DNA of 54,548 bases, counting the filler, from Catajapyx aquilonaris (Eukaryota), in the NCBI GenBank assembly GCA_000934665.2. It is 2 parts of 2 records of this genome, joined end to end, with 100 filler letters (N's around TTAATTAATTAA, not from the genome) between each part and the next. Parts side by side here need not be neighbours in the genome. Positions count along the whole stretch, not along the records: positions 1 to 27,182 come from KZ539285.1; 1 more part is not named here. The stretch is one strand, 5' to 3'. Below, one piece after another: positions 8,311 through 45,401 of this stretch (position 1 is the stretch's first letter; each line of letters starts with the position of its first letter). Under the pieces are notes generated by a model. It was given only the letters and a program-made list of their open reading frames with translations. It had not been told where the DNA came from and did no database searches. Position numbers and translations under genes: made by a program.

Positions 8311-10149
8311 CAGGGCTGCAGATTCAGGCGTAATCACATTAGGCGTAATAGACAGAGTGATAATAGTTTAAACTGTATTACATCAGTTCCGTTTTTGCAA
8401 TAAGCAAATTTGAAATATGAGTACATGTTAATAGCCTATAGAATATGACTTTGTAAGGAAATGTCTGGTTCTGGCAACACTGCAGGCGCCATTTCGAATT
8501 TCTTCGCGGATGATTTTCATTTAGATTTCACAAATTAATGTCATCCCAGAACACTTCCAGGCCTCTTCGTGGCTGAGATTTCAGTTAGATATAAGTCAGG
8601 GTTGAGAGGCTGATATCGGGTCGACCCATCTCGTTGGGTCGACCCCCCTGATCAAATTAAATTTCAAGATAAAAGCAGTCATAATGTATGCTTGAAAATT
8701 CTGGGATGAATAAACAAATTTAAACCAGCAATAATTTATTTACCCAAAATGATGTTTTTCTCCCATTCATGGAGCACAAGTAACTATGTGATGGAAACCC
8801 ATACAAATATTGGAACTTACCATGTACCCACATCTGTCCAGCACCTGTCAGGTCCCGACATGCAAAATTGACCTGTACAGCCTAAAATGAAGGTCAAGGG
8901 TTCAATAAGACTAGTTCTTTTTATCCACGTTATGCACCCATTGGTGTGGCCTACCTACCCATCGAATTTGATTAAAATCTATTGGAAACTACAGGGTGAC
9001 ATTTTGTTGTTGGCTTTTTCCGTTGTGAAAAGCAACTCTATGTGTGCATAGTATTAAATAAAATGCAGATTTATAACGATCTATTTTTTAATGTGCCATC
9101 ACTATAAATTAGCATATCTCTATGATGTTGATGTTAGTCTGGCTTGATTATGTGTATTGTAGGCATAGAGGTGAGCCATAGCACTCAATCGTCACTTCCT
9201 TAGTAAGTCTTCTAAAGAGGAGTAAGATGTAGAGGGAACAGAATCTGCGGGAAGAAAAGACAATTTGTTATTTTTTATTATTTTCTCTTCAAAACACTGC
9301 CTACCATAATTATATCGCGCAATCTCAGTGTATTTTCCACCATCAAGATCTATGGTACAATGTATTCTTATTTTAGTGATAAACCTATATTAGGCCTGTA
9401 CACTGTTGCAAAGACTGCGACTGGATGATTATTGGCATTTACGCAACCAGAATGTAACTTATATAACAGCTGGATTCACTGACACAATTTTAAAAGCCTG
9501 GATAATTATATCGCATCATTATGAATGACAATATTGTCCTTCAGGATCGAGTGTTGGACCATGTGTTAGCACATAACAGAAGTTCCAAGTGTGGTATGCT
9601 AGTTCTGTTCTATTATTATTTTATTCTCACCTGAGCTCTCGAAGTGGAAAACTTTGGTAACAAATTAATCACGACGTTGTGACTTGGGCTTCACATCATG
9701 GGAGATAGTCCATTTATTCTGGAAAAATTCCAGCTTGGTCTGCAACCCTCGTATGATGGGCTGGAAGGATTACAATGTTTATCATAATAATATATGGCAG
9801 GCATATACAGAAACAACCTTAACTCAACTAGATCAGAGAAGGGAAACCCGAGCTTGTGATCTAAGTCATCTAACATAGCGTCTTTCTGTAATTATACGGC
9901 TAACTCTGGAGGTAGGTCTTGTTTGCACGCAGACCATAGTTACCCTTAACTAACGTACCGGTACTGCACTGTACTGAGGCGAATATTCTTTCCTCTATCG
10001 GCTTGGTGATGTCCATTTAGCCCTAAATATTTATAATGAGCCAGCAAGCCCGGATTTTCTGCGTTCACACTTGTGTAAGAAAGTGCAAGATCGAAATTAA
10101 TCTTTGCTTTTATTTGAATTAACTCGAAACTGGTTTTTAGTGTATAATA

Positions 10150-10511
10150 CAGGGTGATCAAACTTGTTTGTCGTTTTAGTTATTGACAAATTCGGCCTAA
10201 GCCCTGGCCTAAGCCCGTTCCCTGGCAACCCCGTCCGGCGGGCCAATTCAAACATCAGCCCATGGAGAGCGCTTCCATTGTTGCCACTGTTTACAAATCG
10301 AGTGAGTGAGTGCGCAGGCAGAAGAGACCCGTCGCTGTGTCGTCCGCGTCACTCACTCGATTTGTAAACAGTGGCAACAATGGAAGCGCTCTCCATGGAC
10401 TGATGTTTGAATTGGCCCGCCGGACGGGGTTGCCAGGGAACGGGCTACAATATAAGCAGCTTAGGCCGAATTTGTCAATAACTAAAACGACAAAAACGTT
10501 TGATCACCCTG
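10150..10511. mobile_element. Near-perfect palindromic Tc1/mariner-type MITE
   Basis: CAGGGTGATCAAAC...GTTTGATCACCCTG with TA flanks; ~165-bp arms are almost fully complementary. Confidence 0.9.
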
Positions 10512-10580
10512 TATACTAAATTTATCAATTCATATCATAATTAATGTAATGTAGGAATGCTGTGGAATTAGATTCCTCAC

Positions 10581-13500
10581 CATCGTGTCCTGTAGTCGTT
10601 CCAAATCATCGCCCTTCTTGGCCTTGTCTACGACAGCTGAAATAGCCTTCTCTACTTCTGTTTTGGTCAGTCGGATTTCCACACACTTGTCGAACGCATT
10701 GTACAAGGCAGTCAGTGATTTGCAATTGTGGTTCATATTTTGGAGGCAATATGCGATCATGATCCAGGCTGTTTCGTTGCAGGACTTTTTCATTTCGAGA
10801 CAGAAATTCTTCACCAGGTGTCCCAAGTACTTGGACCCATTGATCACACCACAGATAATGCTGGAAGATGGATTGTGTGTGAAGCAGCCAAATGGTGATC
10901 GGGGGAAAACAAAGTGATAATATAAAAATAAGAAATATAATATTAATTATACTCACTCCATTATTGAATACAGTTGATGGTCGGAAAGTTCACGTTGGCA
11001 TAGGCCAGATATTGCGCCAGGAAGCATGCCAGTCATGGTTTTAATTCTCTCTCCGATTTTAACCAAAATCATCTGAGATGATTTGTCCAAATCGAGATCT
11101 TCATCAACCACGCACAGCAGGAGCTGTAACATCATACCCTGCTTTAGTTTAATGGCACGCTCCATAATGAGCTCACAAATGGTGCTGTAAACCTTCCTCC
11201 TCACACTGATTTGGTAAGATTTATTCTGCAAGCTGAAAGAATGCATTGATTATTACTGGTGCACACAAACATCCAATATGTAATGAAACCTACACATAGT
11301 ACAGTGGGTCCATATGCTGCTCCATGCAACCTAAGTGGGCGTGTCCCAGCTTCAGTAAGTGCTCCAGAATTGTGATTTGAATATTATGAAATGGACACAA
11401 TCGAAGCATTCTCAACATGATCTGAAGATGAATAAAATAATGTAATTAGCTTAGCGCCTTAAAAGTAATTTTAATAACCTTTAGGCATTAAATTCTTTTG
11501 AAGAATTTTCCCCGAAATATAACATAGTCACACAATGGCCAGCTCTTTACAAAAACACCATATCGATCGAATAATTTTCAAGCAGTGTTACCAAATTTTG
11601 TAAGCCAAAGTCGAGCACTGTCAAACTTATTTCTTCGTCTCTTGGTCATACCCTACGCTGGCATTACCTGAACAGTTCCCTATTGATCCATATTCCAGCA
11701 TCCTTCTTACAGTCCTGATGTAGCAGCATTAGTAGTGTTTCAAATTTTTTTTTCCGCTATCTCAGGAAACTTTTGGCAAGAAAAATCTGAATATTACGTT
11801 TGACGATGGCACGCAGAAAAACGCCATAAAAAATCAACAAGAATACCTAATAATCCATAAATAATATTATTGAGATCTCCAGTAGTATTCAAATACCTGG
11901 GCCATCAAGATTGTTTTTTTTTGTAACATTCTTTTTATATAAATGATATAGCTCAACTGGTCAACTGTACTGATTTTGAGGAGCAGTAAGATTACATTGC
12001 ATATATGCTAATTTTCAGAAGTTACTAAAGAACCCTTTCCATTTCAAACGGAAATGCTATCTTGATCTACAGCAGTTGAGCAATTCCTATTTTTATATTA
12101 ATTTTGAAAAGAATCACATGAGACTTAGACAAATTGAAGAATGCCAGAACAGTATTTCTACAGTCGTATATCTCTCAGCATATAATAGAGTGCATTCCCA
12201 CTGAGGTGTCCGTTTCATTTAATGATTTTTCGCATTAAGCTGCTCGGTACTAAATAGTTAGTTTAGGGGTAATCACAAAATAATATTAGCTGTTAATATT
12301 GGGTGGATCAGGCACATCTTTTCAAAGCACTGAGGGGGGTCTAACTCAAACCCGAAAAAAATCGCAAGTTTTTTTTTCAGAAGGAAATGTAGTCTTGCTA
12401 GTTACCTCTATGTTGTCTGTGTAAAACTCAAGGGAATGCACCATGTATCTTAGGTTCATTAGTGATGCAGCTTCCCAGACGACTACGTTCTGGTACATTT
12501 GAGGATTGTTCACTAAATCCCAGGTGATCTTCCTGAAACATTAAATAATAATGTGTACACTAACGATATGTTTCTAATCACAGGCAGCAACTGAAACAAA
12601 AAAATAGGCACGTACATTACGCCAGTTCGGACAAGGCGGGATAGTATCATCTCGGTAGGAAGCATCCAATTGATGATGTCAGTCGTTTGTACATCACAGT
12701 CGGATTTGTTTGCCACTTTGCAATGGGATTTACCCTGACGTGGTTTGGATACTTTCTTCCTCATTTTATCCCACAGTTGCCTGATGAGAGGTCTACGAGT
12801 ACGACAACGCTTCGATCTCGGCTCTGGCGGACATGTGTCGGTGCGTGCAGCCATTTCCCCGGTCAAAATCTCCATCTGATCAAGATGAAGCATGGCAATG
12901 TGGGACACCAATAAGACGAGTTGCTCCTTATGGGTTATTGTCAACTCTTTAAATGATTTGGCTTTCGTCATCACGCTTGTTAATAAGTTCTCGCATACCA
13001 ATGGGGGATCCTCGGCCACCTGAAATGTATATGGAATCCGTTATTACCCAAGTAGGGTAAAACCTATGGTTTGTAGTGAACCAAGAGATATTCCCATACA
13101 TTGTATATACTTCAGTTGAAGTGTCTGTAGTGGTTAGAATGGTTAGTAATTTTTTGCACTAAGCTTCCTCCTAAGGCAACTGAGACACCTGCCCCATTGA
13201 TAGATAAAACGTCTGGCACAAAATTGTCACTCGCTGTTGCCAACATAAGATTTCCATGACAGAGCTCTCAGAGGCATTCCCTCATTCCCTGTATCGGATG
13301 TTTTGTCCAACAGTGGGGAAAGTGTCTCACTGGAATGCCCACCAATGACTATACTGGAATGCATGATTTATTAAGTGTAATAATAATTATTACACTTAAT
13401 AAATCATGCATTCCAGTAGTCATTAGCGCATATTTTTCTTTTGCCTTCCCCTTCTCCGCCCCATTTGGCCATGTGAGCACAATGTGACTCATCAGCCTTA

Positions 13501-16500
13501 TAGCGCTGGCGCTGGTGGTTGGATCCGATAAGATCTTTGGCGGTGTCTGTGGGAATATCTACTAGCTGTCCTACCATTCTGGTATAGGAACCAAATTAAA
13601 CAAGTCGATGTGACATGTGACATGTCCGGATTTTACCATAACCTTTTCGTAACCATGCCTGTATCTGCGTACAATTGACTGGCTCTATATTATTTTCATC
13701 TGAATGGACCCTTCCGTACCTAAAAGCACCTTACTTCCAATAAATCGTTAACTACTACAGACACTTCATAATAAGTCTATTATTGAAGCACTCTGCATAC
13801 TGAACACTTGTTCACTATTTTAAAAATTCGCAGAACGGAATGACTAAAATAGACTGGTGTTATTGCGGCACAGTCTTGTGTGAAGTTCTTGTTCACATTC
13901 TCACCTTCCAGATTGTTTTGAGTATTGTCTCTGTCATGGTGTTAAAATCTTTAGCTCCATTAACATACATAATCTCCTGAAGTGCGTCGCATAGTTGGAG
14001 TATCATGTCATGCAGTGCGTGGAACTTGGTCTGGCCATCATCACCTTTGGGAAAGCTGTCGTAATGTTCATCTAGTAGGGTCATGTTCGACAAAATTTGA
14101 CACGTGCAATGCACGAGAAAGACATCCCTACTGTCACGCAGTCCAACGGACAAGATATCAGGAAGCTCATGGACTTCAAGGCGACCTTGAGGCCTGAAAA
14201 AATGTAAATAAGGTTTTAATCTGTCGGAAATTGCCACCCGAAATGAAGTCAGAGATGGCCCAACTCTGCACGGATAAAGGTGGGGACCCCGGATGGGGAT
14301 CGAACCCGGGACCTTAATATCCGTAGGCGCGAGCGTTACCGCTGCGCCACTTCACCTCCCCACCCTTGCCATAATTATATTCCATTGTTATATCGTTTCC
14401 TGGTATACCGTCATGATTTCAAATTACAGGCAATGAAGGAATGAAATAATATTTCACAAAGACCATCACAAGACATTTTAAAAAAATAAAACGTACAAAT
14501 ACAAAATACTCCACTATGGTCGTAAATTGGACTGTGAGGTCACCCAAATGGGACTAGACCCAGTACTGTACAGCTCCTCCGCCATGATTTCCTGCTTTGT
14601 GGAAATTGACGACTCTTCCTCCTTTAACCCCTGAAGAACCTTTTCCACTCCTCTTCCAAATGGACCGCCATCATAAATAGTGTAAGTCAGTTAAAGGATT
14701 TCCTTTCCACATGAGGCGGGATTAGGCCTATTAGCCTCCAACAGAGGTGCTGCCTCCCCCCCCTGATGCAGTGACTCGCACTTCCCTAGACTCTAGCACC
14801 TCTGTTGGAGGCTAATAATACCGCCTCATGTGGAAAGGAAATCCGCATCGTCAGCTACACTCGGAATCCAAAGCAAGTGTGGACATTGTAGCCTATACAG
14901 TTTGTCAGTAGCTGAGTTCATTTTAACTCCAGAAGTGTCAAACTCGGGATTTGGCATCATGACTTGTATGCCTGCACATGCCATCTTTATCAAAAATATT
15001 GAGATTGTTTAAGTACAACCATTTCCTCAGGTCAGATGGAATGATGAAGTTATGGCACAATGAGAAACAATGACTGTCAGCAATGAAGCATATTGCTCAT
15101 CTCCATTTCTAATATAATTTCATGAACATCAATTGGCAGGGAAAATGTATTAGACTACTTTTAGACTGAGACACGACCAATATGTGAATGCTTTTAGTCA
15201 CACACAATACTGCCAGTCCCTGCAGTCAGAAAATACCTAGCTTATGGTGGAGCCTCACAAATGTATGGCTGTGCCGTACAGCTTTGTGATTCAACAATAT
15301 TATAAAGTATTATGCACTTACCGAGCGAGAATTCCTAACACAGCAATTCCACGTCTGCTTTCCTTATAATCTCCATCACTGACCAAATACCACAGAAGCT
15401 ATTCCAAAGAGACACAGTTAGTATCGATCAAGTACGTTTAGTGTATTCGCATATCAGCAATGAGGCACCAAAAGCGAGCAAATTTTGTCTTTTGAATGAT
15501 CGGTTTCGATGTCACTTTTTTCTGTTGACACATTTGAACACTGCGATGTGCAAGACACAGTGTCTTGGATAAGTATGAATCTTTGACGTATAGAGCGATG
15601 AACAATCCCTCTTCTTGTCATCACTCGCTTCTCAAGTATTGCTCGCATTTGGAGGCAACCTCCAATATATTTGTGAATGCCCCTTTAGACCACGATGTAG
15701 TCATACAGTGTATTAAACTTGATGTGATACTAAGAACATTTCAGGCAGTGGTGACTTATGTGAATGAGATGACATTTACATTATTGCATCTGATGACTTG
15801 TTTCCCACCGTGGTGTACAGTCATATTTGGTTCCCACTTTTTATTTACCTTGATAAAATGACGGCAGATGTCACCTGAATCAACCAGTGCCGAGATTACA
15901 AGGTGCAGAGGTGCCCACATTGAGAGGTCACAGTCTTCAACGAGTTTGCCGAAAATATGGACAAAAGCACTAGCTTTTTCTCTGAAAAAAAAGAGGTTTT
16001 ATGATAAACGTATATACTGGCACTGACATGTCTGACACCAGTTACTGTATACATTACTGGGTAGGAAAAATAAAACTACCATTGTCAGGGACATGGTCAG
16101 CGGTCAGGGATGAAGAGGATGGGAGGGAGGAGGGGGAAGCTATATTGACAAAACATGTCCCCCTCACGCCCGCAACCCATAACATTTTCCCACCAATCTA
16201 TAATCAATAGTAATAACAATTTTAACAAAACTTTAATCATGACCATACCTGTGTATCAAGTTGTGTGTGTTGGCCAGCTCTAAGAAGGCATTTGGCAAAA
16301 CTGTACTGATGATGTGCTCCGATCCACGTGCAAGAATTCTTCGCATTCCGTGATAGGCTGAATTTATTCCCTGGTGTAGTGCAATCACTAGCAGGCTAAT
16401 GGCTTTCGGTGAATTGTCACTGTCTGACATCACAATGCTGGCTACCCTGAGCATTGCGTAAGAGACGGTTTGCCTAAGAGCCATCAAACTCTTTATGCAT

Positions 16501-17239
16501 TCCACTTTATAGCGCAGACTCTTGCAGAGACAGTTTACACCTAGATCTTCATGCTTTTCTTTCGAGTCACAATGGAAGAACATGTGGGTCATCAGATGAG
16601 CCAACATGTCGCATTCCAATTCCACCTGTTCGTGGGTCAGATCATTGCTCCCGTCATCGTCCTCATTGTTTGCGTTGTTCCTAAAGTCATCGGTGTTAGT
16701 GATATCACCTGCTGCCAATATTTTGGGGACTTCCCACATGTATAAGAATTTTAGGAATCTCAGAATCGTAGGTTTCGACTTTGTGAACGTGGCTTTCTCC
16801 GCTTCATTGTAGGCACTTCGGTCTTTCTCCCCAGAACCGGCAGAAATGAACATAACCTCCATCCAATCCCTGCTGGGAAGAATGAATTCACTGCCAAATC
16901 ACATTACAAATGACAAAATGACTATGTACATGCCTAATTTCCATGTTAGATGGGCAAGCTTCAGCAAGGCTTCTTCCAACGTCAACTGCATCTTGGAAAC
17001 GACCAGTTCTGAGCAGCTGAGTCGCAGTTATCAAGGCCATATCCAATTTGTGAGGATTTTGTAGGTGCGTCCACTCTTCACTGGTTGATCCTAATAATTA
17101 TAATACTTATTATTATTATAGTTATAATAATTATAATAATAATTATTATTGTTATTATTATTATAGTTATAATAATTATAATAATTATTATTGTTATTAT
17201 TGTTATTATAGTTATAATTAGTATAATATATAATATTAG

Positions 17240-17315
<76 letters not shown>

Positions 17316-20300
17316 TGTTATGCAATAATTAGTCGACCACTCAACCCACATGAGAACAGTTTTTAGAAAACGTGCTTTGAATGTCACCTGTGCAATTAAT
17401 TCAGTGTCCTTTTTGGTCATTTATGGCAGAAGTATGCGGATTTCGCCCGCTTGATTTTAACTGAAGGAAGTACGATCCTTTGGGTATATGTGACATTTTT
17501 ATGGGTTGACACATTATTCGTAGACTGTACAGTATCCCCCCCGTGAGGTCAGAAACTTGTTATGTGGCAACTGCGCATCTAAAAACCCAATTTAGGGTTC
17601 AAGTTTTGCTCGATGGTTACCAGCGGCTCAATAATTATTGAATAATAGCAAAGATGCGATTAAAAGGAGATCACGCTGTGACTCATCCGACTGTTTAAAC
17701 TTACTGCTCGAGACAAGGGGCATTAGCCTGTCCTTCCACCAACAAACTTGCAAGGCAATTGTTACAATCACGGTAAGATGAGTAATGTCTGGACACTCCC
17801 ACTGTTATCGCCTTAGGGGCCTGACGGGGTGTTTTGCGGCAGGTGGCCGCTTGATAGCGCTTTTCAGGGCGTCGCAGACATGTGGCGACCCTACCGGACG
17901 GCGCTGAACTTAGGTAGAAGAGAATTCTCTTCGTAAATTCGTGGTTATGAATGAAGAAAGTACGAGCCAAAACTGGCATTTTAACATCTTAATAATCGAG
18001 CTAATGTTGATATCATGTGGGGCCTCTCATGCTATAGGAGCGTATAGGAGTACAGTATGTTCTTCTGATTATTTTGTTAGGATGACTTCTACATTATTCG
18101 ATCTCATGCGACTGCCTTGAATGGCACCCTGAATATATTTGGTAGTGTCTATTTCACAACCAACAGGTACTGTACAGGGTCCTCCGGTAAAAATTGCCCT
18201 GCATCACATTACACCGTCTCCATTTCTGCAATGACAGGATATAATTAAGTCGCGTTTCAAATCAGGCTTGGTGGAGGAAGCCAGTGGGTGATGATAATAA
18301 TATTGCTTGCCTTCATGTGCTCACCTCCTTTCCAGGCCGAAATTAGCAAGCACAATGTGATGCAGCATAATTTTACCCGAGCTCCCTATGTGTTGGTCAA
18401 ACAGTAGGTCTACTGTACCTGACTGTAGGCTACCTACCTTCTATTTCGTCATTAATGTAGGGAAGGACCTTCTTCTCTATTTCTGGCCACGTTTTTATCT
18501 TCGGAATGATATTTGGCCAGAGGGGGCATATTTCCCACTGATGCTTGCAAATGGTTAGCTTGCATTGAGCAAGGGATGGAACAGCCTAGCAGGTACAGTA
18601 CAAAAGACAGATTCTGTTATTGGCATATTCTTTAGACCAAAATTATTTGCAAGTCCCGGAAGGGTCTCAACTCACATCTGGAGTCACACACTATTTTCCT
18701 TTGTCAACCCCCTCTCCCTGCCCCGCCCGGGGATCGGAATCACATTCTCAAAAATGTGACTCCCTTGCAAAAGTCTGAGCCATAGGCAAATATGAATTTA
18801 GACTTAAAGGATGCGTGTTTACCTCTTCGATAGCAGGATAGATGGTGAAGAAGCGCAAAAACACATTTAATGCTTTTTCTCGAACTATGGAAGACTCGTC
18901 AACCAATGCTTTTGTACTCATCCGTAGGACGGATGCAAGGGAGGCCATAGGAATTTTCTCATCGTTTAGCAGGGAGAATATGTAATGTACAACCTGCAAC
19001 GTACAAGGTAAAAGTAAACTTAATGAACCTGTTGCATTATGGTAACATGAATTATTGGCGTACCCAAAAGCGAATGATAAAAACTTGATCATTGAAGGAG
19101 GCCAACATTAATCGAAGGTAGTCAGCCCATCGTGTTTGGTCAGGGTGGCGGACATCTTCGGGACCTGGCTTCTGCGCGATCAGGTTGTAGAGACGTTCAA
19201 TCATGCGTCTCCGAATTATGTGGGACTAGAAAGAAATGTCACCAGTGAAACAGTTACACGGCTGCTCAGGGACAATACCCAGTTGTGCCCCAAACAGGCC
19301 ACGGACACTACCCCTACAGTCTTATCTTATCGCCTGCCGGGGCGTTTTGCATGGGGTTCTCACCTGAGAGCGCCATGAGACCTTTCACTGCTGGATTATG
19401 TGGCGACCCTACCGGACTACGCTGAACTTTATAGGTACAAAAGGGAGCGCTACATTGGGGGACCCAATATGGTCGCCGGCGGCCATGTTGGGCCCGCATG
19501 TAGCGGCTTCTCTTCTACCTAAGTTCAGCGTAGTCCGGTAGGGTTGCTACACAATCCAAAGCTGTCTCATGGCGCTCTCAAGTGAGCACCTCATGCACTC
19601 CCACTTATCACCTGCCGGGGCGGCAGGTGATAAGTGGGAGTGACCAGACCTGAGTATTCTAAGATCGTGGACCCTAACCTACCTCTTGGTTCACTTCGTA
19701 CAGGAAGGAGCTCAAGTTTCCCATAACAGCTTCTGGATGAAGTTTGGAAAGACATGCCAAGAACTTGTTCAGCCTTTTATTTATGTCATCCTGGTCTTCG
19801 TCTGATATAGAGATGTTTTCAGACACTAGAATCATCAACTTCATTAGCATCATATTGGATTTGCACAGTTTGATGATTTCGTCGGTAAGGTTTACGAGAA
19901 ACTTAGTCGAACGATGCGATTCCACAATTGCGACTATTCGTTTCAAGAAGGAACTTTCATGTCCGTATTTCTGTATAAGAATAGCAATAGTTTTAGCAAG
20001 GTATGGATGGACTTCTGTATCCAGGTGAATAACACAGGTCTCCGAGATTTGGTACACAGCGTCCCCAATGTGCCTGAAACGATTCAAGTCAGTTATTCAT
20101 CACTGAAACCTTTCAAATCGGATAATTTTTGACCAAACATGCACTCACTCTTGAATGGCTGGTTCAACGAGATATTCGGGCCACATCTTATCGAGAGGGA
20201 GCTCCAACAATTGAACCAATTGCTTCATAAGTATCAATCGTTTGGCGGACCATCGAGTAGTAATCTTCTCTTTCCCCTGTAACAATATCTACTGCCAACA

Positions 20301-21426
20301 TATGCACACTACAACATTGTACATGCTGAAAATCCTTTATCCTAAATGCTTGGGATCGGAAATGTTTCGGATTTTGGAATATTAATGCGGTAGGTTATCT
20401 TTACACATTAAAATTGGACTGCCTTGGGATGGGACCTAAGCCTAACACGATATCCATCGTAAATAATATATTTCATGATAGAGGTTATACATAAACCCTG
20501 AAGGTACCGTCTCCTGAACTTTTTTCCTTACCTAACGTAACCAAAGAGACGGAAAGAACTCATCTTAAATGCAGTGTATTGGGAGTTTAGGACACATAAA
20601 CTACAGGTAATGAAGCTAGTCATGATTCACTCACATGAAATTATCAATATTAGTGGCGCGTCATGTCAGCACCCAAAACTTACGAGTTTTGGAATTTAGA
20701 ATCAAGACGTATATCCTCAACCTATGTTGCCTATGGAATAGTGTACGAGTAAGTTAACAGTATTTAACATTACTTCAGCATTTTGCATGACATACTCAGT
20801 TTGAATTATTCTTGAGTGGATTCTTCTGTTTAACACTAAGCAGGTGTTGTATGGTCACTTTATATTTGATTTCATTTCATTTATACAATCGCATTTGATT
20901 TCATTTGGTGCACAATATTATTATGCATATTCCATGCCAAGTACTGTCTTGTCCTATTCAGGGTTATCCAAAACACTTGCCTGACTAATATGGCTATTAG
21001 CAGGGACTAAGCTGCTTATTATTAAGCAGTTACTTTCGTATAGGGTTACTTTCAATAGTTTTCACAAGTATTAGCTGCTAATATTATGTTAAGTGTACAT
21101 ATCCCTTTTAAATCTCACAAAAGGATCTGGCCATGCACAAATTCGACATGAGATGCCAATAATAAATAATTGTTCCAATGGGCCATTCATAATCGGAAAG
21201 ACTGCTGTTCAGAGCTTGAATTGATGATTCTGTTTAGCAGAGCTCTGATACTTTTGATAACCAATAAAAGTAATTATGGAAAAGTAACTGCTTAGTGCAG
21301 CTTAGTGCCAACAAATAGCCATATTAGTCGAACAAGTATTTTGGATCAATCTGTGTACAGTATATAGTATGTAATATTATACGTTATATTATAAGTTATA
21401 CACTATAACTACTTTTCGTATTTGAG

Positions 21427-21499
<73 letters not shown>

Positions 21500-24400
21500 T
21501 AGAGTTAGTTTCTAAATAACCCCATTAACGTTGTTGGTTAATATATTGTTGCAGACATTACACACGGATAAATCTTTGGCCGGATTATCTGTTACATGTA
21601 GGGCTGGTTGCACAATTGAAGCTTTTACGATCGAAGATTTATCATTGTTAGTCACTCTTGAGATCAATATATTCCATTGGCCAATTCAATTCATTTCTGT
21701 ATTGCAATCAATTTATGCCTCAATTCAGGTCAATTCTCATGGTCAAGGAAATTGAATGGAAGCAATAATTCAATTCCATTTAAATATGAATGCTATCAAT
21801 CACAGATCAACCAAATTCCATTTAAGTAAGAATGTTTTCAACAACATTAATATTTCATTCCAATCATCAGTTTGGAAGTAATTCCGAATTAATTCGAGTC
21901 CAAATTTAATTGTGCCAGTCCTTATATGCATGTGCATTAAAAAGAGGCTACTTACGGTTTTTGGAAGAAATGAGCTTCTTGCAAACCTATTTTCCATCAT
22001 TGGAGCCAGTTGCGAGATGATATAGATATTCATTTTAACCGAGTTAAAATAATTGTCGACTTCCTCGGGTATCCACGCTGCCTCTTTGTTCAAGTAATCT
22101 ATGTAGTCCGATATTAGCAGGTCCAGAACTACAACATGAAATGACCAAGATGTTAATTTTTCTACTACTGTACATTCTCGAGAAAAGGTAAGGGCACTCT
22201 ACCACAGGTTCTTTTCAAGGCTTGCAATGCTGTGACAGCAGGTCAAGTCAATGATGCCAGAGTAAAGGGGATCTGCGGAGACCTGTGTAGTTGTTTTTTT
22301 TTTCTAGTGCCACGCAAAAGAACCGGTGATATGGTCGGTCCTTCCTCTTCTCAGCCAAGAGAACATGTTTAAATAGGATGTATTTTTCTGGATATTTGAC
22401 ATCTCTTCTGATGACAAATCTCCAAAACTGTCTACACATACCTGCCCTTTCCACATTCCAATAGCGGAGAACTAACTCGCTCGACAGATGGTGAAACCGT
22501 CGTATGACACTGTAGAAAACGTCGAATCCATACAGAATGAAGTGTTTATAATCTGGCCAACTTTCGCATCCTAATAATGAAATTTAAAGCATATAATAAT
22601 GAAACTTTCAAACGACCAAATTCATCGAAGGAAGTCAACAAAGTGAAGAGTGGTCATACAAAGCAGTTCACATCTATGAATTTAGTGAATATTATTAGTA
22701 TCGATTGAAACGTGGCGGAAGCGTCTTTGTCAGGTTGGTGCTCTGTGTGGCTCGTGTTTGATAATTCTGCATGAAATTTAATTATAACTATATTTTTTTG
22801 TATTGATTTAAAGTTTTCCCATGCATGTAACAGCCTGTGAAAAGAACCGAATAAGGCACATTCCCCACGAGCAACTGCTCACTGTGGATAATATACAGCA
22901 GAATATCATAACTCTTTATAAATCCTCTCACACACAATAATATTATTCCATCTTTGTCAAAATACTGTTTATGTGGATATCATGTGATATGAAGGTCACT
23001 ACGCCGAAACATTATGGCCACCAACTTAATATGATGCTGATGCTCCTCTCGCTGTATAAGCCCATATTCAGGAGTGTTCGATGAACAGTGTGTTTCAACA
23101 CACTAATACCATCCCCACTATTGAAACTGTCAGAGAGATGATATTACGATGAAGACGTCTGACCATCACAATTTTGATCTTGGTGGAAGTCGGATAAATC
23201 CGCCTTGACCATAGCATACCCCAAACAATGTCCCCCCAAGTGGGCCTCTGGCCCAGATACGTGGTAGTTAAAAATAAATAAATAAATAAATATCCCAAAC
23301 AATGAGGCTGGTGGGCTGTTCGCGGTCCAAACATGGCGAAACAACGAACCATCTGCAAGGCGTGGGCCCAGCGTGGGCCAGTCACGACTCACTAATGCAA
23401 GAGGTCAGCATACCAGTTATTACATATACAGTTCACATCTTGACCAACTGGGGGGCGCCCCGTCCCCCACTCATTGGATTGACAAATTGAAAAAATTAAT
23501 TATAGTGATAAAGTTTGAGGCAAAAATTAAGTAAAACGTAAGCAAAAATGAGAAAATATACAACAGTAGGGCTTACTGTAAACTATGGAGTCAGAGGACA
23601 AAGAGTGATGCATTCTTGTGTGATTTTCCATGAGAGTGTGCGTGTATAGACGTGATTTAGCAGTGATAATATTAATCATAAAGCAAAATTATTGGTCCTC
23701 TTGGTTTTGAGTCAAGGAAAGAGGCGCCCCACAGTGCTAGATTTATACAATGGACCATGGTGCAAATGTTGTAGATGAAACAGGGGCGGTTAGCCTTCCT
23801 CTGGGTTTCATGAGTGACAGGTTGTAAAACAGGAGAGGTTCTCTTATTGGAAGCTGGGACAATAATTATTCTTGGGGATCTCGTCCATGCACCAATTTGA
23901 TTTTGAGGAAGTGTTCCTTCTTCTTTGTACAATACTCGAATTGTTTATTTTTAAGGAAAAGCAAGTCTTTATTTAGGGTGACCCATTCCTACTGTACCTT
24001 TTTAGGTGAAACCGGACATGAGGAAATGGGGAAAGAAGTTGCTGGAATAAATCTGGCAACAGGGCAGATTATTTTTTTTTAATTATTTCTTGAATGACAC
24101 TTTAGCCCGGAGATGTCAAGATTTTACGCTTCTGTTATTGCGCACTTTGATGAAAGTGTAAAGTAATTGCGTACATAGAAATATGAGATCGGGATAACCA
24201 CACAAAAATACATTCTTTCTAGCCTAAATTTTCTTCAAAACTTTTATTGCTTTCGTTAATCGATCGAAACCGGCTCCAAATTTCATTGCTTTGCGTTTTG
24301 CAGTCTGTCCGAAGTTTACGAGCACAAGTGAATATGGGGTGGTGTCCCAGATATTCCGCTTCTAACTTCGCCATTGGAGTATTTAGAAAAAGATGGAGGA

Positions 24401-25348
24401 ATGGCGCTTCCCAGACCCAGCGCCGGCTTTACATACCATTTCGACAAAACCTCCAAAAACATCTCGTCCAATGAAATTTCACTAAATAACATTTTGTCCG
24501 AAAGATTTTTCGCCCAAATGACATTCGGTCCGAAATATTTCGCCTAATGATACATTTACTATGCAACTGGTGTCACTGAATTCTCGTGCACTAGGCACGA
24601 TTTTGTCCAAAAGGTATCGTGTGTAAAATAATTCCTCCAAACCCAAAGGCGCAGACGCGGGTATACCAAAACGGGTTAGTCTTTGGACAAAAACATTTGG
24701 ACGAAAAGATGTAATGTACGAAAATTAGTCCAACGAAATGCATTTTGGCGAAATAATTGGACGAGATATCTTTGCAAGAAAATGATTTGACTGAAGGGGT
24801 ACATAACCGTAATTATGTGCCAAGCATGTGAATTCCGTGCAAGAATGTGTCCTAATGGAATATTCAGACAGACGCCGATTTTTAGTAATTTAGCGGAAAT
24901 TTGCGAAACAATTATTAGTAATACACAAAATCTTCATAATTTGCTAGGAAGGGTATTTTGTCTCTTCCATAGGTTTATTCCTCACATCGGAAATGTACTC
25001 GGACCATTTCTTGCCTTAGAAGTAAGGTGCATTAGAACATTGGGAACACTGAGAACCATTTTTGTTGGTGTTCTCATGTTTTCACATGGTTTAGGATTAT
25101 GGGAGTTTCCCGACATGCTTTACTACTTTCGCATCATCTTTTCATCACATCAGATATAGCTCGGGCAGAGCTACAAACGACATATGGTCCGTCACTGTGT
25201 CACAATATGTCAAGAACAGTAGATACTCACGGAGAATGAGGTCATTCAATTCCCATTCGTCAAACAGATGGAATATCACATATGAATCATCTGGAGCTTT
25301 ATTCTTGCGAAGTTGCGATATGTTCTTCGGGAATTTAAATTCCATCAT
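10581..25348 (-). CDS. NCAPD2: Condensin complex subunit 1 (Cap-D2/NCAPD2/Cnd1)-like HEAT-repeat protein, highly divergent; terminal exon unresolved
   Basis: Exons 25348-25231, 22570-22442, 22128-21956, 20276-20149, 20073-19683, 19225-19064, 18993-18823, 18537-18438, 17090-16934, 16872-16249, 15981-15849, 15398-15322, 14193-13905, 13019-12616, 12532-12406, 11421-11294, 11232-10957, 10860-10581 total 3867 nt (1289 codons), phase-consistent and stop-free. Motifs colinear with remembered NCAPD2: FDVFYSVIRRF, FNSVKMNIY, LVDESSIVREKAL, GINSAYHGMRRIL, LVNNPQMYQN, IAYCLQNM. Confidence 0.85.
13345..13424. repeat. Short palindrome (hairpin)
   Basis: ACTGGAATGCATGATTTATTAAGTGTAATAAT / ATTATTACACTTAATAAATCATGCATTCCAGT. 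Confidence 0.85.
14225..14360 (-). mobile_element. tRNA-derived SINE, 5' part (family A)
   Basis: Minus strand has A box TGGCGCAGCGGTAA and B box GGTTCGATCCC followed by GTGCAGAGTTGGGCCATCTCTG, which is shared with the copy at ~52487. Confidence 0.75.
14696..14844. mobile_element. Palindromic MITE-like element
   Basis: GGATTTCCTTTCCACATGAGGCGG..TATTAGCCTCCAACAGAGGTGCT / AGCACCTCTGTTGGAGGCTAATA..CCGCCTCATGTGGAAAGGAAATCC. Confidence 0.75.
17092..17314. repeat. Compound (ATT)n/(TAA)n microsatellite
   Basis: Degenerate ATT/TAA array ending in a pure (TAA)n run; explains the poly-Ile and poly-Tyr/Asn ORFs. Confidence 0.95.
19325..19655. mobile_element. Fold-back (inverted repeat) element; related fragment at ~17788-17920
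   Basis: GAGAGCGCCATGAGAC..ACCCTACCGGACTACGCTGAACTT versus AAGTTCAGCGTAGTCCGGTAGGGT..GTCTCATGGCGCTCTC; similar core at ~17880-17920. Confidence 0.7.
20322..20724. mobile_element. pogo/Tigger-type MITE (same family as 44901-45261)
   Basis: AATCCTTTATCCTAAATGCTTGGGATCGG..TTTCGGATTTTGGAATA closely matches the reverse complement of ~45187-45255; degenerate TIR ends. Confidence 0.7.
20959..21353. mobile_element. Tc1/mariner-type MITE with long imperfect TIRs
   Basis: ATCCAAAACACTTG..GACTAATATGGCTATT..ACTAAGCTGC / GCAGCTTAGT..AATAGCCATATTAGTC..CAAGTATTTTGGAT. Confidence 0.7.
21428..21499. repeat. (CTA)n microsatellite
   Basis: Pure tandem CTA run. Confidence 0.95.
24425..24810. mobile_element. 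Degenerate non-autonomous DNA element with TTCGTCCAA-like subrepeats in opposite orientation at each end
   Basis: CTCGTCCAA/TTCGCCCAA/TTCGCCTAA on the left, TTGGACAAA/TTGGACGAA/TTGGCGAAA on the right. Confidence 0.5.
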
Positions 25349-27588: not shown

Positions 27589-30500
27589 TAAATAATATTA
27601 ATCGTAATATTAGAAAAAAATCCCTAAATCTTTATTTTGTCTTCTGGAAAAAGTCTGTGATGATTGGGGACATTCACACATCACTTCCGGTGAAGGCCGG
27701 AGCCATTAAAAGTCAAGCATCCTTCCCTCCTCCTTGAGTCACGGTTACCTTCACGAAATGCAGTACAGTATCGAAAAAATCAACAGTCAACAATAGAATG
27801 GCTCTAACAATGGGATACGTGTTTTCCTCTGGAAAAGGGGCTGTCTTTTGCCTCGCCTTCAAATAAACCACTCCGTCCTCTATGGAAAGTATTTCTCATA
27901 GTCAGATAAATGCCAGAAAAATAATATCTGAAGCCCATGTCCACGAAGAAAATCTCTATGAAGGACGAAAAGCAATGCTCCTATGTGTGAGCTCGTTCCA
28001 TGCCAAGTATATCTGACCGAAATTATGGGGCTGTCTTTCATACTTAGTAAGGGGTTAATAATTATAAAAAAAACAATTATATCTAAACCAAAACTAATAT
28101 TAGCAAAGGTGGCGGTCCACTATTGTGGAGTGTTTCCTATACTGACAGTGAGCAGTCCACGTGTTCGTGTTGGGCTAGCTCGGGTCACTTGCCCGAGTAT
28201 ACATGCGGATGGTGGCAGCTATTGTATCTAAATGTATATGTTGTTCGTGAGCAAAATTGCCACTTTTTTCGATTGTGCTCTGTTTTAGCCATGAATGAAT
28301 AATCCTCATGCGGATAATCGGGAATACAGTATAATGCCATATAACAAATTGAATTCGTACACGTAGTCTGTATCTGTCTATTCACCCGTTGCATTATTCC
28401 ATGCACTCGAAAATTATCCGATCTTCGAGTACTTTCCCAATATAGAACCAGTGCCGGACTCTAAGGTACAAATTTCGGCCCCCTGCTTCGCCCGTGGGTC
28501 CTATCGGAGTGAAAATCGAAGGATAGGATGCCATGGCGATTTCAGACGTATTCACTTCATTGCCGCACATGTATCTCAAATAGTTTACAAATGGAGATTT
28601 ATTTCGTATACCACCACCTTTTTTCCAACTTATAGTTCGGCCTTTGTACTATATTGGGCTTATTCAAATATAGTCTATATTCTTTCAGAAATACATGAAT
28701 ATGGAAAATGACGATCCATGTGCATGTAGGTAAACCAAAACACTATGCAATTATTCCGCTAACATAACTGTCCACGTATTAATCAGGCGAACACAATGCG
28801 AAAACTATGCGATTGCATCTGCATTGCGTCAAAAGTAATTATTTTTACTTGCGTCCAAAATGTTATGCACTAAAAATTATCATCAGCCCAGCAAAAAAGA
28901 CATTCCCATCCCATAACTAGAATCTAGCTCGTAGCACACATCCTATATCTTCCGAGAGAATAGCATATTGGCCCACCAACCAGAGTCTCAACGATTTGTT
29001 ATTATATTCTTTGCCACGAGAAAAAGTTACGATTGACCCTTATGTGGGTCAGGTCTTGCAATTTTTTTTTAGAAAGGGTACTTATTTTTCACGTACATAA
29101 ACCAGCTTCCTGGTTCTATTAGTCTAATGACTAAAATGGAACTTGCATAGTGGAGCATATGAGAAAATAATAGAGGAAATAGATTATTGAGGCATTGACA
29201 TTGGATAGGGCTTAAGTCACAAATAATATTTTTTACAGCGGCTAGTCAAAAAACCAGTATTTAGAACACACCGTGAAGCAAAATATACGCAATATAATTA
29301 ATATATTTGGTTTGATTTGTTACACAAATTCATGAAAAGTCAAAGTAAACGCAGCTGATGAGTTTAACAATTATTAAATATAGGTTACTTTTTTGTGGGT
29401 CATTTCTCATTGTGACTTAACGCCCTTTCCCCTGTCAACGCCTCAGTTGAAATGCAGGTCACACTGACTTGCTGAATTTTGAGATTGACAGTTTAAAGTT
29501 TGAAAATTTCGTGTTTCCCTTACGGAACCAAAGTTTCCCAAGAATTTCTTAGGGTGCTTCAATTGTCTTGTCAAAAAATAATTTGACCATCTGACTTGAT
29601 TACAGAAAATTAAATGTCATTTCGACCAAATGTGTATCTGTTCTTTGGCATCTTGTCTTCAAATAAATTACCAAAGAATCCAGGCTCTATATAATTAAAA
29701 ATTTAAAAAAAGCATGAACTTCATGAATATGAATTGTAATCAAGAATTAGTATTGGGCACATATAGGGCTCAGACGAAGAAAATGAGGCCAAGTTCTGAT
29801 AGGGATTGGGTAAATATACGAACAGAATGCATACATTATACGGATCATGTTTATATCGTAATTGTAGTTTACAGTGTTTTTATGTATTGTTTATATATTT
29901 ACTTTGTTTGATTGTGTACTATGTGTGGATTCATGTATTCGATCTCATCATTACTTAATCCAATATGTTCTCCTCTTGTACCTGACCAATCATCAAAGGA
30001 TTGATTGTATTGGTCATACGAGCCCCTGTCATCGGATTAATGCCTTAGGCCTGTAGAAAATGAATGAATGTTTATATAGTATCAGTTATTTAACTTCATG
30101 TTGATTGCAATGTTAACATAAGTTTAATCAGGGAATGAATTTATTATTGCTTGCATGCTTTTACTCAATGCAGTATTTCCTCGGCTAAAATATTAATATA
30201 AATTCGTAGTTATTTTCCATAACCACCACATGCACCCGGTGAAAATTTAAATTCAGCGGTGAAAATGGAGTTACAAAAATCTGTACGGAAAGACAGGTCT
30301 TTCCTTGTACTTAAAGAAAACTACAATGAAATTCTTATGAACTTATTTAGAGATGATAATTATGTGAGCAGTGTTAGAGTACAAACAACCAGAAAGCATC
30401 TGGGGAACCTAACCGATGCGATGTTCTAATTCTGTATGATTGAGCTGAAATAGATGTTTGACTGAGTATAGTACTACATACTACGAGATGTTTTCCGGAA

Positions 30501-33500
30501 GCTACCGATGTCAAGTTACTTGTAATACAGCTTCAGAATGCTTTATCCTGCAAAAACTGAAAGTTATTTTTTAGTGCTGAATCCGGATGAATCATGACGC
30601 GCCACAAATGGAAAATTCCGCCTAAGTGTAAGCATGACTCTAGCAACATTTCCTGTATCTGTACGTAACGCAAAATTACTACAAACATTAAATTTAAAAC
30701 AATCCATCAAGGTTTAATCGGGGTTAATGTGTAACATCTATTCAAAAATGGCAATGATATGGAAATCGTGAAGAGGCATTTACGTGTCCCACCCAAAAGC
30801 CGCTTTATAGGTGAAATTATGGCGTAACTTATTCCGAAATTAGATACATGCCATACAGCACTTCACCACCACTCCACAGAACAACGGACATATACTCACG
30901 CCCTTATGCCATTTAAAAAATATATAAATAAACATAATTTGCAATACTGACAACATCACACATCTGGGTGACAATCGGTAAAAATAGCCCCCCCTCTGTC
31001 CCTAATTTATAAATAATTAAAACTGGTGAATTGTTAATTGAAAATAAAGCGCTTCAATGGAGGGGGGGGGGGGGGGAATAGTCCACCGGTGATTGGCGAG
31101 AGTTTGGGCGGGAAGCATGGTGATTGGCAAGGATTGGTAGGATGGCGGGGGGGGGGGGGGGGGGTGGAAGCTGTAAGTTGGGGTCCCATTCCAGCTTCCC
31201 GTTACCCCGAAGGATCAGTGAATAGGCTATAAATAATATTAATCGTAATTAGAAACTGTTCCCTGCATCTTTAGTTTGTCTTCTGGAAAAAGTCTGGATG
31301 ATTGGGGACAGGCCGGAGCCATTAAAAGTCAAGCATCCTTCCCTCCTCCCTGAGTCACGGTTCCCTTCACGAAATACATACCGTATCGAAAAAATCAACA
31401 GTCAACAATAGAATGGCTCTAACAATGGGATACGTGTTTTCCTCTGGAAAAGGGGCTGTCTTTTGCCTCGCCTTCAAATAAACCACTCCGTCCTCTATGG
31501 AAAGTATTCCTGAGAGTCAGATAAGTACCAGAAAAATAATATCTAAAGCTCATGTCCACGAAGAAAATCTCTATGATGGACGAAAACCAAAGGCTCGTAG
31601 GTGTGAGCTCGTTCCATTCCAAGTATATCTGACCGAAATTATGGGGCTGTCTTTCATACTTAGTAAGGACGGTGTTAATAATTAAAATATATATATATAT
31701 ATATTTATATTTATATTTATACCAAAACCAATATTAGCAAAGGTGGCGGTCCACTATTGTGGACTGTTTCCTATACTGACAATGAGCAGTCCACGTGTTG
31801 GGCTAGCTTGTGTCACTTGCCGTAGTATACATGCGGATGGTGGCAGCTATTGTAACTAGATGTATAATTATGTTGTTCGTGAGCAAAATTGTAATTTTTT
31901 TTCGATTGTCCTCTGTTTTAGCCATGAATGAATAATCCTCACCCGGATAATCGGGAATACAGTGTAATGCCATATAACAAAATGGATTCGTACACGTAGT
32001 CTGTATCTGTCTATTCACCCGTTGCATTATTCCATGCACTCGAATATTATCCGGTCTACGAGTAGCCTACTTTCCCAATAGTACCAGGGCCGGACTCCAA
32101 GGTACAAATTTCGACCCCTGCTTCGCCCGTGGGTCCTATCGGAGTGAAAATTGCGGGATAGGATGCCATGGCGATCTCCGACGTATTCACTTTATTACCG
32201 CACATGTATCGCAAATAGTGTACAAATGGCGATTTATTTCGTATACCCCCACCTTTTTTTCCACCTTGGAGTTCGGCCCTATGGTACTATTGGTCTTATT
32301 CAAATATAGTCTGTATTCTTTCAGAAATACATGAATATGGAAAATGACGCTCCATGTGCATGTAGGTAAACCAAAGCAGCATGCAATTATTCCGCTAACA
32401 TAACTGTCCACGTATTAATCTGGCGATCACAATGCGAAAACTATGAGATTGCATCTGCATTGCGTCAAAAGTAATTATTTTTACTTGCGTCCGAAATGTT
32501 ATGCACTAAAAATTAACATCAGCCCAGCAAAAAAGACATTCCCATCCCATACTAGAATCGAGCTCGCAGCACACATCCTATATCTTCCGAGAGAATAGCA
32601 TGTTGGCCTTTCACCAACAAGAGTCTCAACTATATTTTGTTATATTCTTTGCCACGAGATAAATAGAATATTGGCCTTTCAGCAACTAGTCTCAACTATT
32701 TACTATATTCTTCGCCACAAGAAAAAGATACGACTTGACCCCTACGTGGGTCAGGTCTTGCAATTCTTTAGAAAGAGTACTTATTTTTCACGTACATAAA
32801 CCAGCTTCATGATTCTATTAGTCTAATGACTGAAAGGAACTTGCATAGTGGAGCATTTGACAAAATAATAGAGGAAATAGATTATTGAGGCATTGACACG
32901 GGATAGGACTTAGGGCCAGTTGCACCGGCCTCAGTATAACTTAGAACCTCGGGTATAACAAGAATTGCCATAGCAATCATTGTTGACCAACAATGATTGC
33001 TATGGCAATTCTTGTTATACCCGAGGTTCCAGGTTATACTGAGGCCGGTGCAACTGGCCCTAAGTCACAAATAGTATTTTTTACAGGGGCTAGGCAAAAA
33101 ATCCTTTTTGAGAACACACCGTGCAGCAAAATATACGCAAAATATATCTTTTGTTAGGTTTTGTCCCACAAATTCATGGAAAGTCAAAGTAAACGCAAGG
33201 TTAGGAGTTTAACAATTATTAAATGCAGGCTACTTTTTTGTGGGTCATTTCTCATTGTGACTTAACGCCATTTCTCCTGCCAACGCCTCAATTGAAACGT
33301 AGGTCACACTGACTTCCTGAATTTTGAGATTGACAGTGTCAAGTTTGAAAATTTCGCGTTTCCCGTATGGAACCAACTTTTTCCAAGAATTTCTTAGGGT
33401 GCTTCAATTGTTTAGTCAAAAAATAATCGATTTGACCATCAGAAGATATGAGTCAATGGTCAATGACTGTCTTGATTACAGAAAACTAAATGTCATTTCG

Positions 33501-45261: not shown

Positions 45262-45401
45262 CATAGTGCATAGTCAACTGTTGGATAGTTGAAAAAATCT
45301 CCATTACTGATTAATCCTTTATTAATATTGTAATTTTCTTTTTACCAACTTTTGAATCTTTGAGCAAGCAATTATTATTGCAGAGCATGCAGATCAAGAG
45401 C

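Follow-up and report, generated by a model that had tools for sequence, protein, structure and literature searches.

An intact, apparently highly diverged Cap-D2-like gene of Catajapyx aquilonaris

Introduction

Condensin I is an essential complex with subunits that can usually be recognized easily across eukaryotes. Can its D subunit, Cap-D2, lose core motifs while its gene is kept intact, and is a gene of this kind the only Cap-D2 of the animal or a diverged duplicate? These questions are raised by a locus of Catajapyx aquilonaris (assembly GCA_000934665.2), analyzed here within a stretch of 54,548 bases with ~40% G+C (hereafter the window). An initial annotation had placed a Cap-D2-like gene at 10581-25348; these coordinates hold, and the gene lies on the minus strand. 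We found that the minus strand from 25348 to 10581 is occupied by an intact, intron-rich gene of a HEAT-repeat protein that belongs to the Cap-D2/Ycs4/Cnd1 family. Judging from its two signature domains, the encoded protein is homologous to Cap-D2/Ycs4 and is predicted to work like it.

Gene structure and selection

The long open frames on the minus strand between 25.4 kb and 10.5 kb (221, 175, 152, 140, 138, 132, and 119 codons) follow each other in a consistent order. The first model came from a custom dynamic-programming gene finder (20 exons, 1275 residues) and was corrected by hand by reading the three frames around every doubtful junction. The curated model contains 19 exons (Table 1), begins with the ATG at 25348, ends at a GTGAGG donor that follows 10581, and comprises 4113 nt or 1371 stop-free codons. 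The open multi-exon frame described initially was retained, while its count of 18 exons and 1289 codons was not reproduced. The acceptors of all 18 introns are CAG or TAG, mostly with a pyrimidine-rich tract before them.

The frame used is the only open frame in 18 of the 19 exons, and the chance of obtaining 1371 open codons is ~3e-36 at the stop-codon frequency found in the introns (0.058). For the joined exons, the period-3 signal is 29.1, compared with at most 6.2 (median 4.0) among 200 intron chunks of equal length. The G+C content at third codon positions (GC3) is 0.50 in the coding sequence vs an overall G+C content of 0.39 in the introns. Because the stop-free frame, the period-3 signal, and the raised GC3 all persist, neutral drift to the divergence described below is improbable. 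The Cap-D2-like gene is real and its frame is held open by selection, which agrees with the open frame claimed in the initial annotation.

Assignment to the Cap-D2 family

Each of the 19 exons was scanned singly against 24,736 Pfam models (E up to 10). The sole match in exon 5 was Cnd1_N (PF12922; E 0.0098, 16.2 bits, under the cut-off of 27), and the best match in exon 18 was Cnd1 (PF12717; E 0.0018, 18.7 bits, under the cut-off of 26.4). When the entire open reading frame (ORF) that holds exon 18 was used, the Cnd1 score was 19.5 bits, again under the cut-off of 26.4. The succession of Cnd1_N and Cnd1 from the N to the C terminus is the order expected for the D subunit of condensin I. Since these two families had been named beforehand, E may be divided by the number of models, and by our own arithmetic this gives per-exon chances of ~4e-7 for Cnd1_N and ~7e-8 for Cnd1. 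At these two anchors (exons 5 and 18), the colinearity with Cap-D2 that had been claimed for the whole protein was supported. Elsewhere, we assume colinearity over the full length of vertebrate Cap-D2, starting at the N terminus, continuing along the central repeats, and extending past Cnd1.

In a protein atlas, the three named clusters nearest to exon 18 are all Cnd1 clusters (0.96, 0.95, and 0.95). These clusters have 198, 184, and 173 of 256 features in common with the exon, and Cnd1 is found on 40%, 95%, and 100% of their members, respectively. The same atlas recognized exon 19 poorly and returned Mutator-type clusters, which we judged to be noise. Exons 17 and 19, expected to carry the remainder of the Cnd1 domain, had no Pfam match to it. 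The evidence for HEAT repeats consists of one weak match (E 0.18, exon 8) and the length of 1371 codons. An AlphaFold2 model of exon 11 alone contained only helices, at a mean predicted local distance difference test (pLDDT) score of 38.7 that is too poor for a fold search.

Families of Cap-D3 were searched for in the same scan, namely, Condensin2nSMC, which we take to be the name of a Cap-D3-specific Pfam family, and HEAT_NCAPD3, a name seen in the atlas clusters. None of the 19 exons matched either family (E up to 10), although this is a weak negative because the HMMER filters discard most matches above ~0.1. The Cnd1_N match, together with the lack of a Cap-D3 family match, supports a protein that is probably more Cap-D2-like than Cap-D3-like, as had been proposed. 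We use the term Cap-D2-like and do not count the protein among the canonical members because the Pfam cut-offs are not reached exon by exon and the exact motif of the KG-loop is missing.

Divergence and the KG-loop

The core motifs had been described as eroded, and our results are consistent with this description: both domains score below the Pfam cut-offs, and KLKQGM takes the place of KVKGQL or KVKGQV. Both segments quoted as examples were located, QITILEHLLKLGHAHLG at 11379-11329 within exon 17 and LIMERAIKLKQ at 11171-11139.

In the part of Hassler et al. (PMC6591010) that concerns this region, the KG-loop lies between HEAT repeats 18 and 19 of Ycs4, bears a lysine-glycine pair that is conserved, and is the likeliest contact to the W-loop of Smc4. 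The loop reads KVKGQL in yeast Ycs4 and KVKGQV in human NCAPD2 and is highly conserved, also in NCAPD3; its replacement in yeast abolished the complex with the Smc4 head, crippled the ATPase, reduced chromosome binding, and was lethal (PMC6591010). In the C. aquilonaris gene, the counterpart inside the Cnd1 match is KLKQGM at 11150-11133, in which the two lysines are preserved while the glycine has moved by one residue. The exact lysine-glycine pair is missing, and the position of the loop was deduced from its place inside the Cnd1 match, not from a residue-by-residue alignment. LIMERAIKLKQ contains the start of this counterpart, and the KG-loop reading gives its difference from the human segment a functional meaning. 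The Cap-D2-like protein would still act as a D-type subunit that is held by the kleisin and docks on the SMC4 ATPase head. Its contact with the SMC4 head may be rewired, as proposed from the loop KLKQGM here vs KVKGQL in yeast and KVKGQV in human.

Database searches with single pieces of the gene found no relatives. A phmmer search of five exon/ORF pieces against all Protein Data Bank (PDB) sequences (E up to 10) gave chance-level matches only and no condensin chain; Ycs4 structures are expected in the PDB, given the work described by Hassler et al. (PMC6591010). Exon 11 (206 residues) had 0 matches at E up to 0.001 in a phmmer/HMMER search of 1.84 billion representative proteins, a collection in which the coverage of animal proteins is uncertain. 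Scanning metagenomes gave 77 pattern matches for exon 11 and 118 for exon 18, of which 0 were confirmed. A word-based protein search yielded 839 candidates for the 221-aa ORF and 13 for exon 18 (E up to 10), with 0 scored in either case. These blanks say little on divergence because the control, the well-conserved DWNN exon of the neighboring RBBP6-like gene, was likewise empty (10 candidates, 0 scored).

The same DWNN exon provides the best-calibrated contrast, one within the window, with 62.6 bits over 53 profile positions (Pfam PF08783, E 4e-17) vs 18.7 bits over 85 positions in exon 18. Because this neighbor scores normally, the erosion is apparently specific to the Cap-D2-like gene and not lineage-wide. 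The strong divergence looks real, and both signature domains are recognized only by profile and language-model methods.

Ortholog or duplicate

We consider the chances about even that this gene is a lineage-specific, fast-evolving Cap-D2 duplicate that exists beside a canonical Cap-D2 elsewhere in the genome, and we regard this as likelier than a sole Cap-D2. A duplicate is favored because a sole ortholog so eroded would be an outlier and because duplicates are not rare. According to the relevant passages of King et al. (PMC6759200), all five condensin I subunits were readily found in each species that entered their phylogenies, among them a mite, Daphnia, and a springtail. Their table S10 contains extra Cap-D2-like matches in three of 12 species, namely, Nilaparvata lugens, Nasonia vitripennis, and Solenopsis invicta (King et al., 2019; PMC6759200). 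Our literature search on crustacean or testis Cap-D2 duplicates turned up nothing relevant among the papers listed. Several observations weigh against the reading as a diverged Cap-D2 duplicate as a whole. There is no second copy of the gene within the 54.5-kb window, and the many retained introns and the ordinary site beside the RBBP6-like gene fit an original locus equally well as a DNA-level duplicate. As many as 17 of the 19 exons match neither Cnd1_N nor Cnd1, and neither of the two matches reaches its curated cut-off. A low score is inevitable when a domain is divided among exons and each exon is scored singly, and the erosion is uncalibrated against a canonical arthropod Cap-D2. Also, the blank among 1.84 billion proteins may stem from poor animal coverage, and the gene model requires a GC donor for one intron and includes two weak donors.

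Less likely, in our view, is a sole Cap-D2 that serves as an ordinary mitotic condensin I subunit and whose evolution in this lineage is unusually fast, perhaps together with corresponding changes in Cap-H and the W-loop of SMC4. The full-length, intron-rich, and colinear structure with both signature domains in place, the normal gene neighborhood, the lack of a second copy in the window, and the two lysines kept in the loop all fit this explanation. Positive selection on Cap-D2, detected by King et al. in a McDonald-Kreitman test of Drosophila melanogaster/simulans (PMC6759200), is also in its favor. However, such an eroded ortholog would stand apart from the species of King et al., in all of which the five condensin I subunits were found (PMC6759200). 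Moreover, the KG pair, whose conservation extends from yeast to human and includes NCAPD3, is broken here, and the neighboring gene is not unusually diverged. An identity as Cap-D3, the D subunit of condensin II that evolves fast in insects, appears improbable. The Cnd1 domain is common to D2 and D3, HEAT_NCAPD3 is present in 13% and 27% of the members of two lower-ranked atlas clusters (ranks 11 and 16, respectively), and condensin II subunits evolve rapidly (PMC6759200). On the other hand, exon 5 matches Cnd1_N, no Cap-D3 family was found in the 19 exons at E up to 10, and HEAT_NCAPD3 is not listed among the families of the three top atlas clusters. We also assume that Cnd1_N is specific to the D2/Ycs4 line, and that both the number of HEAT repeats between exons 6 and 8 and the C-terminal part fit D2 better.

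We give little credence to a non-functional copy, silent or recently freed from selection, whose open frame would be due in part to the choice of splice sites. Such a copy might explain the GC donor of one intron, the inclusion of exon 3 for its frame only, the weak donors of exons 7 and 17, the C-terminal end that was not found, and the alteration of an essential loop. A neutral copy would nevertheless hold many stops (~3e-36 for none in 1371 codons), and the period-3 signal, the raised GC3, and the CAG or TAG acceptors in 18 of 18 introns speak against it. The least credible explanation is an unrelated HEAT/ARM-repeat protein with condensin matches that arose by chance. Both matches are under the Pfam cut-offs, no condensin chain in the PDB was matched, and some other exons have similarly weak matches (TPR_14, E 0.0029; Spo0A_C, E 0.0034; MKRN1_C, E 0.015). 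Yet chance would have to put the two signature domains of a single family, specified beforehand, each at its proper end of a protein of fitting length, and the atlas, an independent method, places exon 18 among Cnd1 clusters.

If the gene is a diverged duplicate beside a canonical Cap-D2, the animal might have a second, specialized condensin I-type complex. In such a complex, the diverged paralog with a rewired SMC4-head contact (KG-loop to K-Q-G) would replace the canonical D subunit, for example in the germline or in meiosis. We put this forward tentatively and consider it rather doubtful.

Comparison with known condensins

The protein resembles Cap-D2/NCAPD2/Ycs4/Cnd1 in its length of ~1370-1390 residues, in the Cnd1_N match near the N terminus and the Cnd1 match near the C terminus, in the all-helical model of exon 11 (low confidence), and in the K-x-K kept at the position of the KG-loop. 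It differs from them in that both domains are below the cut-offs, 17 of the 19 exons match neither domain, KLKQGM is found for KVKGQL/V, no extended C-terminal tail was detected beyond the last HEAT repeats, and the sequence searches found no relative. With Cap-D3/NCAPD3, it shares the Cnd1 domain and the KG-loop (PMC6591010), and fast evolution has been described for Cap-D3 in insects (PMC6759200). In contrast to Cap-D3, no exon here matches a Cap-D3 family, and a Cnd1_N match is present instead.

The extra Cap-D2-like genes of insects indicate that arthropod genomes can carry additional Cap-D2-like loci, some of them diverged (PMC6759200). Those genes were found by BLAST with the Cap-D2 of the same species, so they are much less diverged than the gene described here, and their function is not studied in the passages concerned (PMC6759200). 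For Tetrahymena, the relevant part of the published account describes a specialized condensin that combines a shared Smc2/Smc4 core with unique non-SMC subunits and is active in sexual reproduction (PMC6724606). This condensin D is a precedent for a variant condensin with a unique non-SMC subunit, but it belongs to a ciliate that has two types of nuclei and an enlarged complement of condensin genes (PMC6724606). An animal counterpart of this specialized condensin would be new; extra Cap-D2 copies in insects are already recorded. To our knowledge, nothing comparable to the Tetrahymena complex is established for animals.

The significance of the locus depends on which of these explanations applies. 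Between yeast and human, the KG-loop of the D subunit hardly differs in sequence, and ATPase activity, chromosome binding, and viability depend on it (PMC6591010). If the gene encodes the sole D subunit, it would be a natural experiment in the limit of drift, and matching changes in SMC4 would be expected. If it is a duplicate, it could indicate that an animal has a variant condensin. On present evidence, the Cap-D2-like gene is a lead, not a result.

Exon coordinates and neighboring features

Table 1. Exons and related features of the Cap-D2-like gene, with positions counted along the window.
Feature	Coordinates	Strand	Length (nt)	Remarks
Exon 1	25149..25348	-	200	ATG 25348 is the first ATG of the open frame; donor GTGATG; single open frame
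Exon 2	22672..22834	-	163	
Exon 3	22477..22570	-	94	Uncertain; decent splice sites (TTATTAG / GTTAGT); without homology support
Exon 4	21956..22128	-	173	Donor GTAAGT
Exon 5	20149..20276	-	128	Sole Pfam Cnd1_N match (PF12922, profile positions 87-113 of 164)
Exon 6	19683..20073	-	391	
Exon 7	19064..19225	-	162	Phase 0 at both ends; absent from gene-finder model, added by hand; weak donor
Exon 8	18823..18993	-	171	Weak matches to HEAT PF02985 (E 0.18, single repeat) and CLASP_N (E 0.024)
Exon 9	18438..18585	-	148	Donor GTAGGT
Exon 10	16934..17090	-	157	In frame only via a GC-AG intron (AG/GCATGT)
Exon 11	16249..16869	-	621	Longest exon; 206 whole codons; central region, acidic stretch
Exon 12	15849..15981	-	133	
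Exon 13	15322..15398	-	77	Donor GTAAGT
Exon 14	13905..14193	-	289	
Exon 15	12616..13019	-	404	Basic loop
Exon 16	12406..12532	-	127	
Exon 17	11303..11421	-	119	Alternative end 11296; start of Cnd1 domain by position; without Pfam match of its own; weak donor
Exon 18	10957..11232	-	276	Alternative start 11225; Cnd1 core (PF12717, profile positions 35-119 of 162)
KG-loop counterpart KLKQGM	11133..11150	-		Inside exon 18; lysine-glycine pair split by Q
Exon 19	10581..10860	-	280	Donor GTGAGG after 10581; last secure exon
Possible unspliced read-on	10530..10580	-		16 further codons; TGA stop at 10532-10530

Exon 3 was included because it keeps the frame, the only reason beside its decent splice sites. 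The intron after exon 10 (16934-16870) has 64 nt and is apparently of the rare GC-AG type (AG/GCATGT ... CAG), and no GT donor preserves the frame. The sequence AG/GCATGT agrees with the usual consensus of GC donors. Two in-frame solutions, equally weak, exist for the junction of exons 17 and 18. Three small exons of the gene-finder model (18385-18325, 17903-17895, and 11714-11668) gave way to exons 10 and 17, both of which agree with the protein order that was expected. For the 3′ end, the two alternatives are splicing at the GTGAGG after 10581 and read-on to the TGA at 10532-10530. No convincing further exons for a C-terminal tail were found between 10530 and the next gene at ~5850.

That gene, the next downstream neighbor, is RBBP6/Mpe1-like and lies on the minus strand at 5853-5662 and 742-392, leaving the window at its start. 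In addition to the DWNN exon, it contains a CCHC zinc knuckle (zf-CCHC, 19.2 bits, slightly below the cut-off of 20.8). A palindromic element at 10147-10514, which resembles a miniature inverted-repeat transposable element (MITE), immediately follows the point at which the Cap-D2-like gene may stop. Its outer arms (56 nt) have 96% complementarity and its inner arms (98 nt) have 99%.

Upstream of the Cap-D2-like gene, a unit of ~3.6-3.9 kb occurs as three tandem repeats (about 27600-36200), with partial copies 10-20 kb further (45350-48350). Five of the longer ORFs of this unit (at 28.4, 32.0, 35.6, 47.5, and 49.8 kb) had no Pfam match. Its repeats correspond to families D2-D20 in the repeat analysis of the window. 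Two microsatellites are located within introns of the Cap-D2-like gene, one in intron 9 that forms an array of ~220 nt rich in (ATA/TAA) (17092-17315) and a perfect (ACT)24 in intron 4 (21427-21499).

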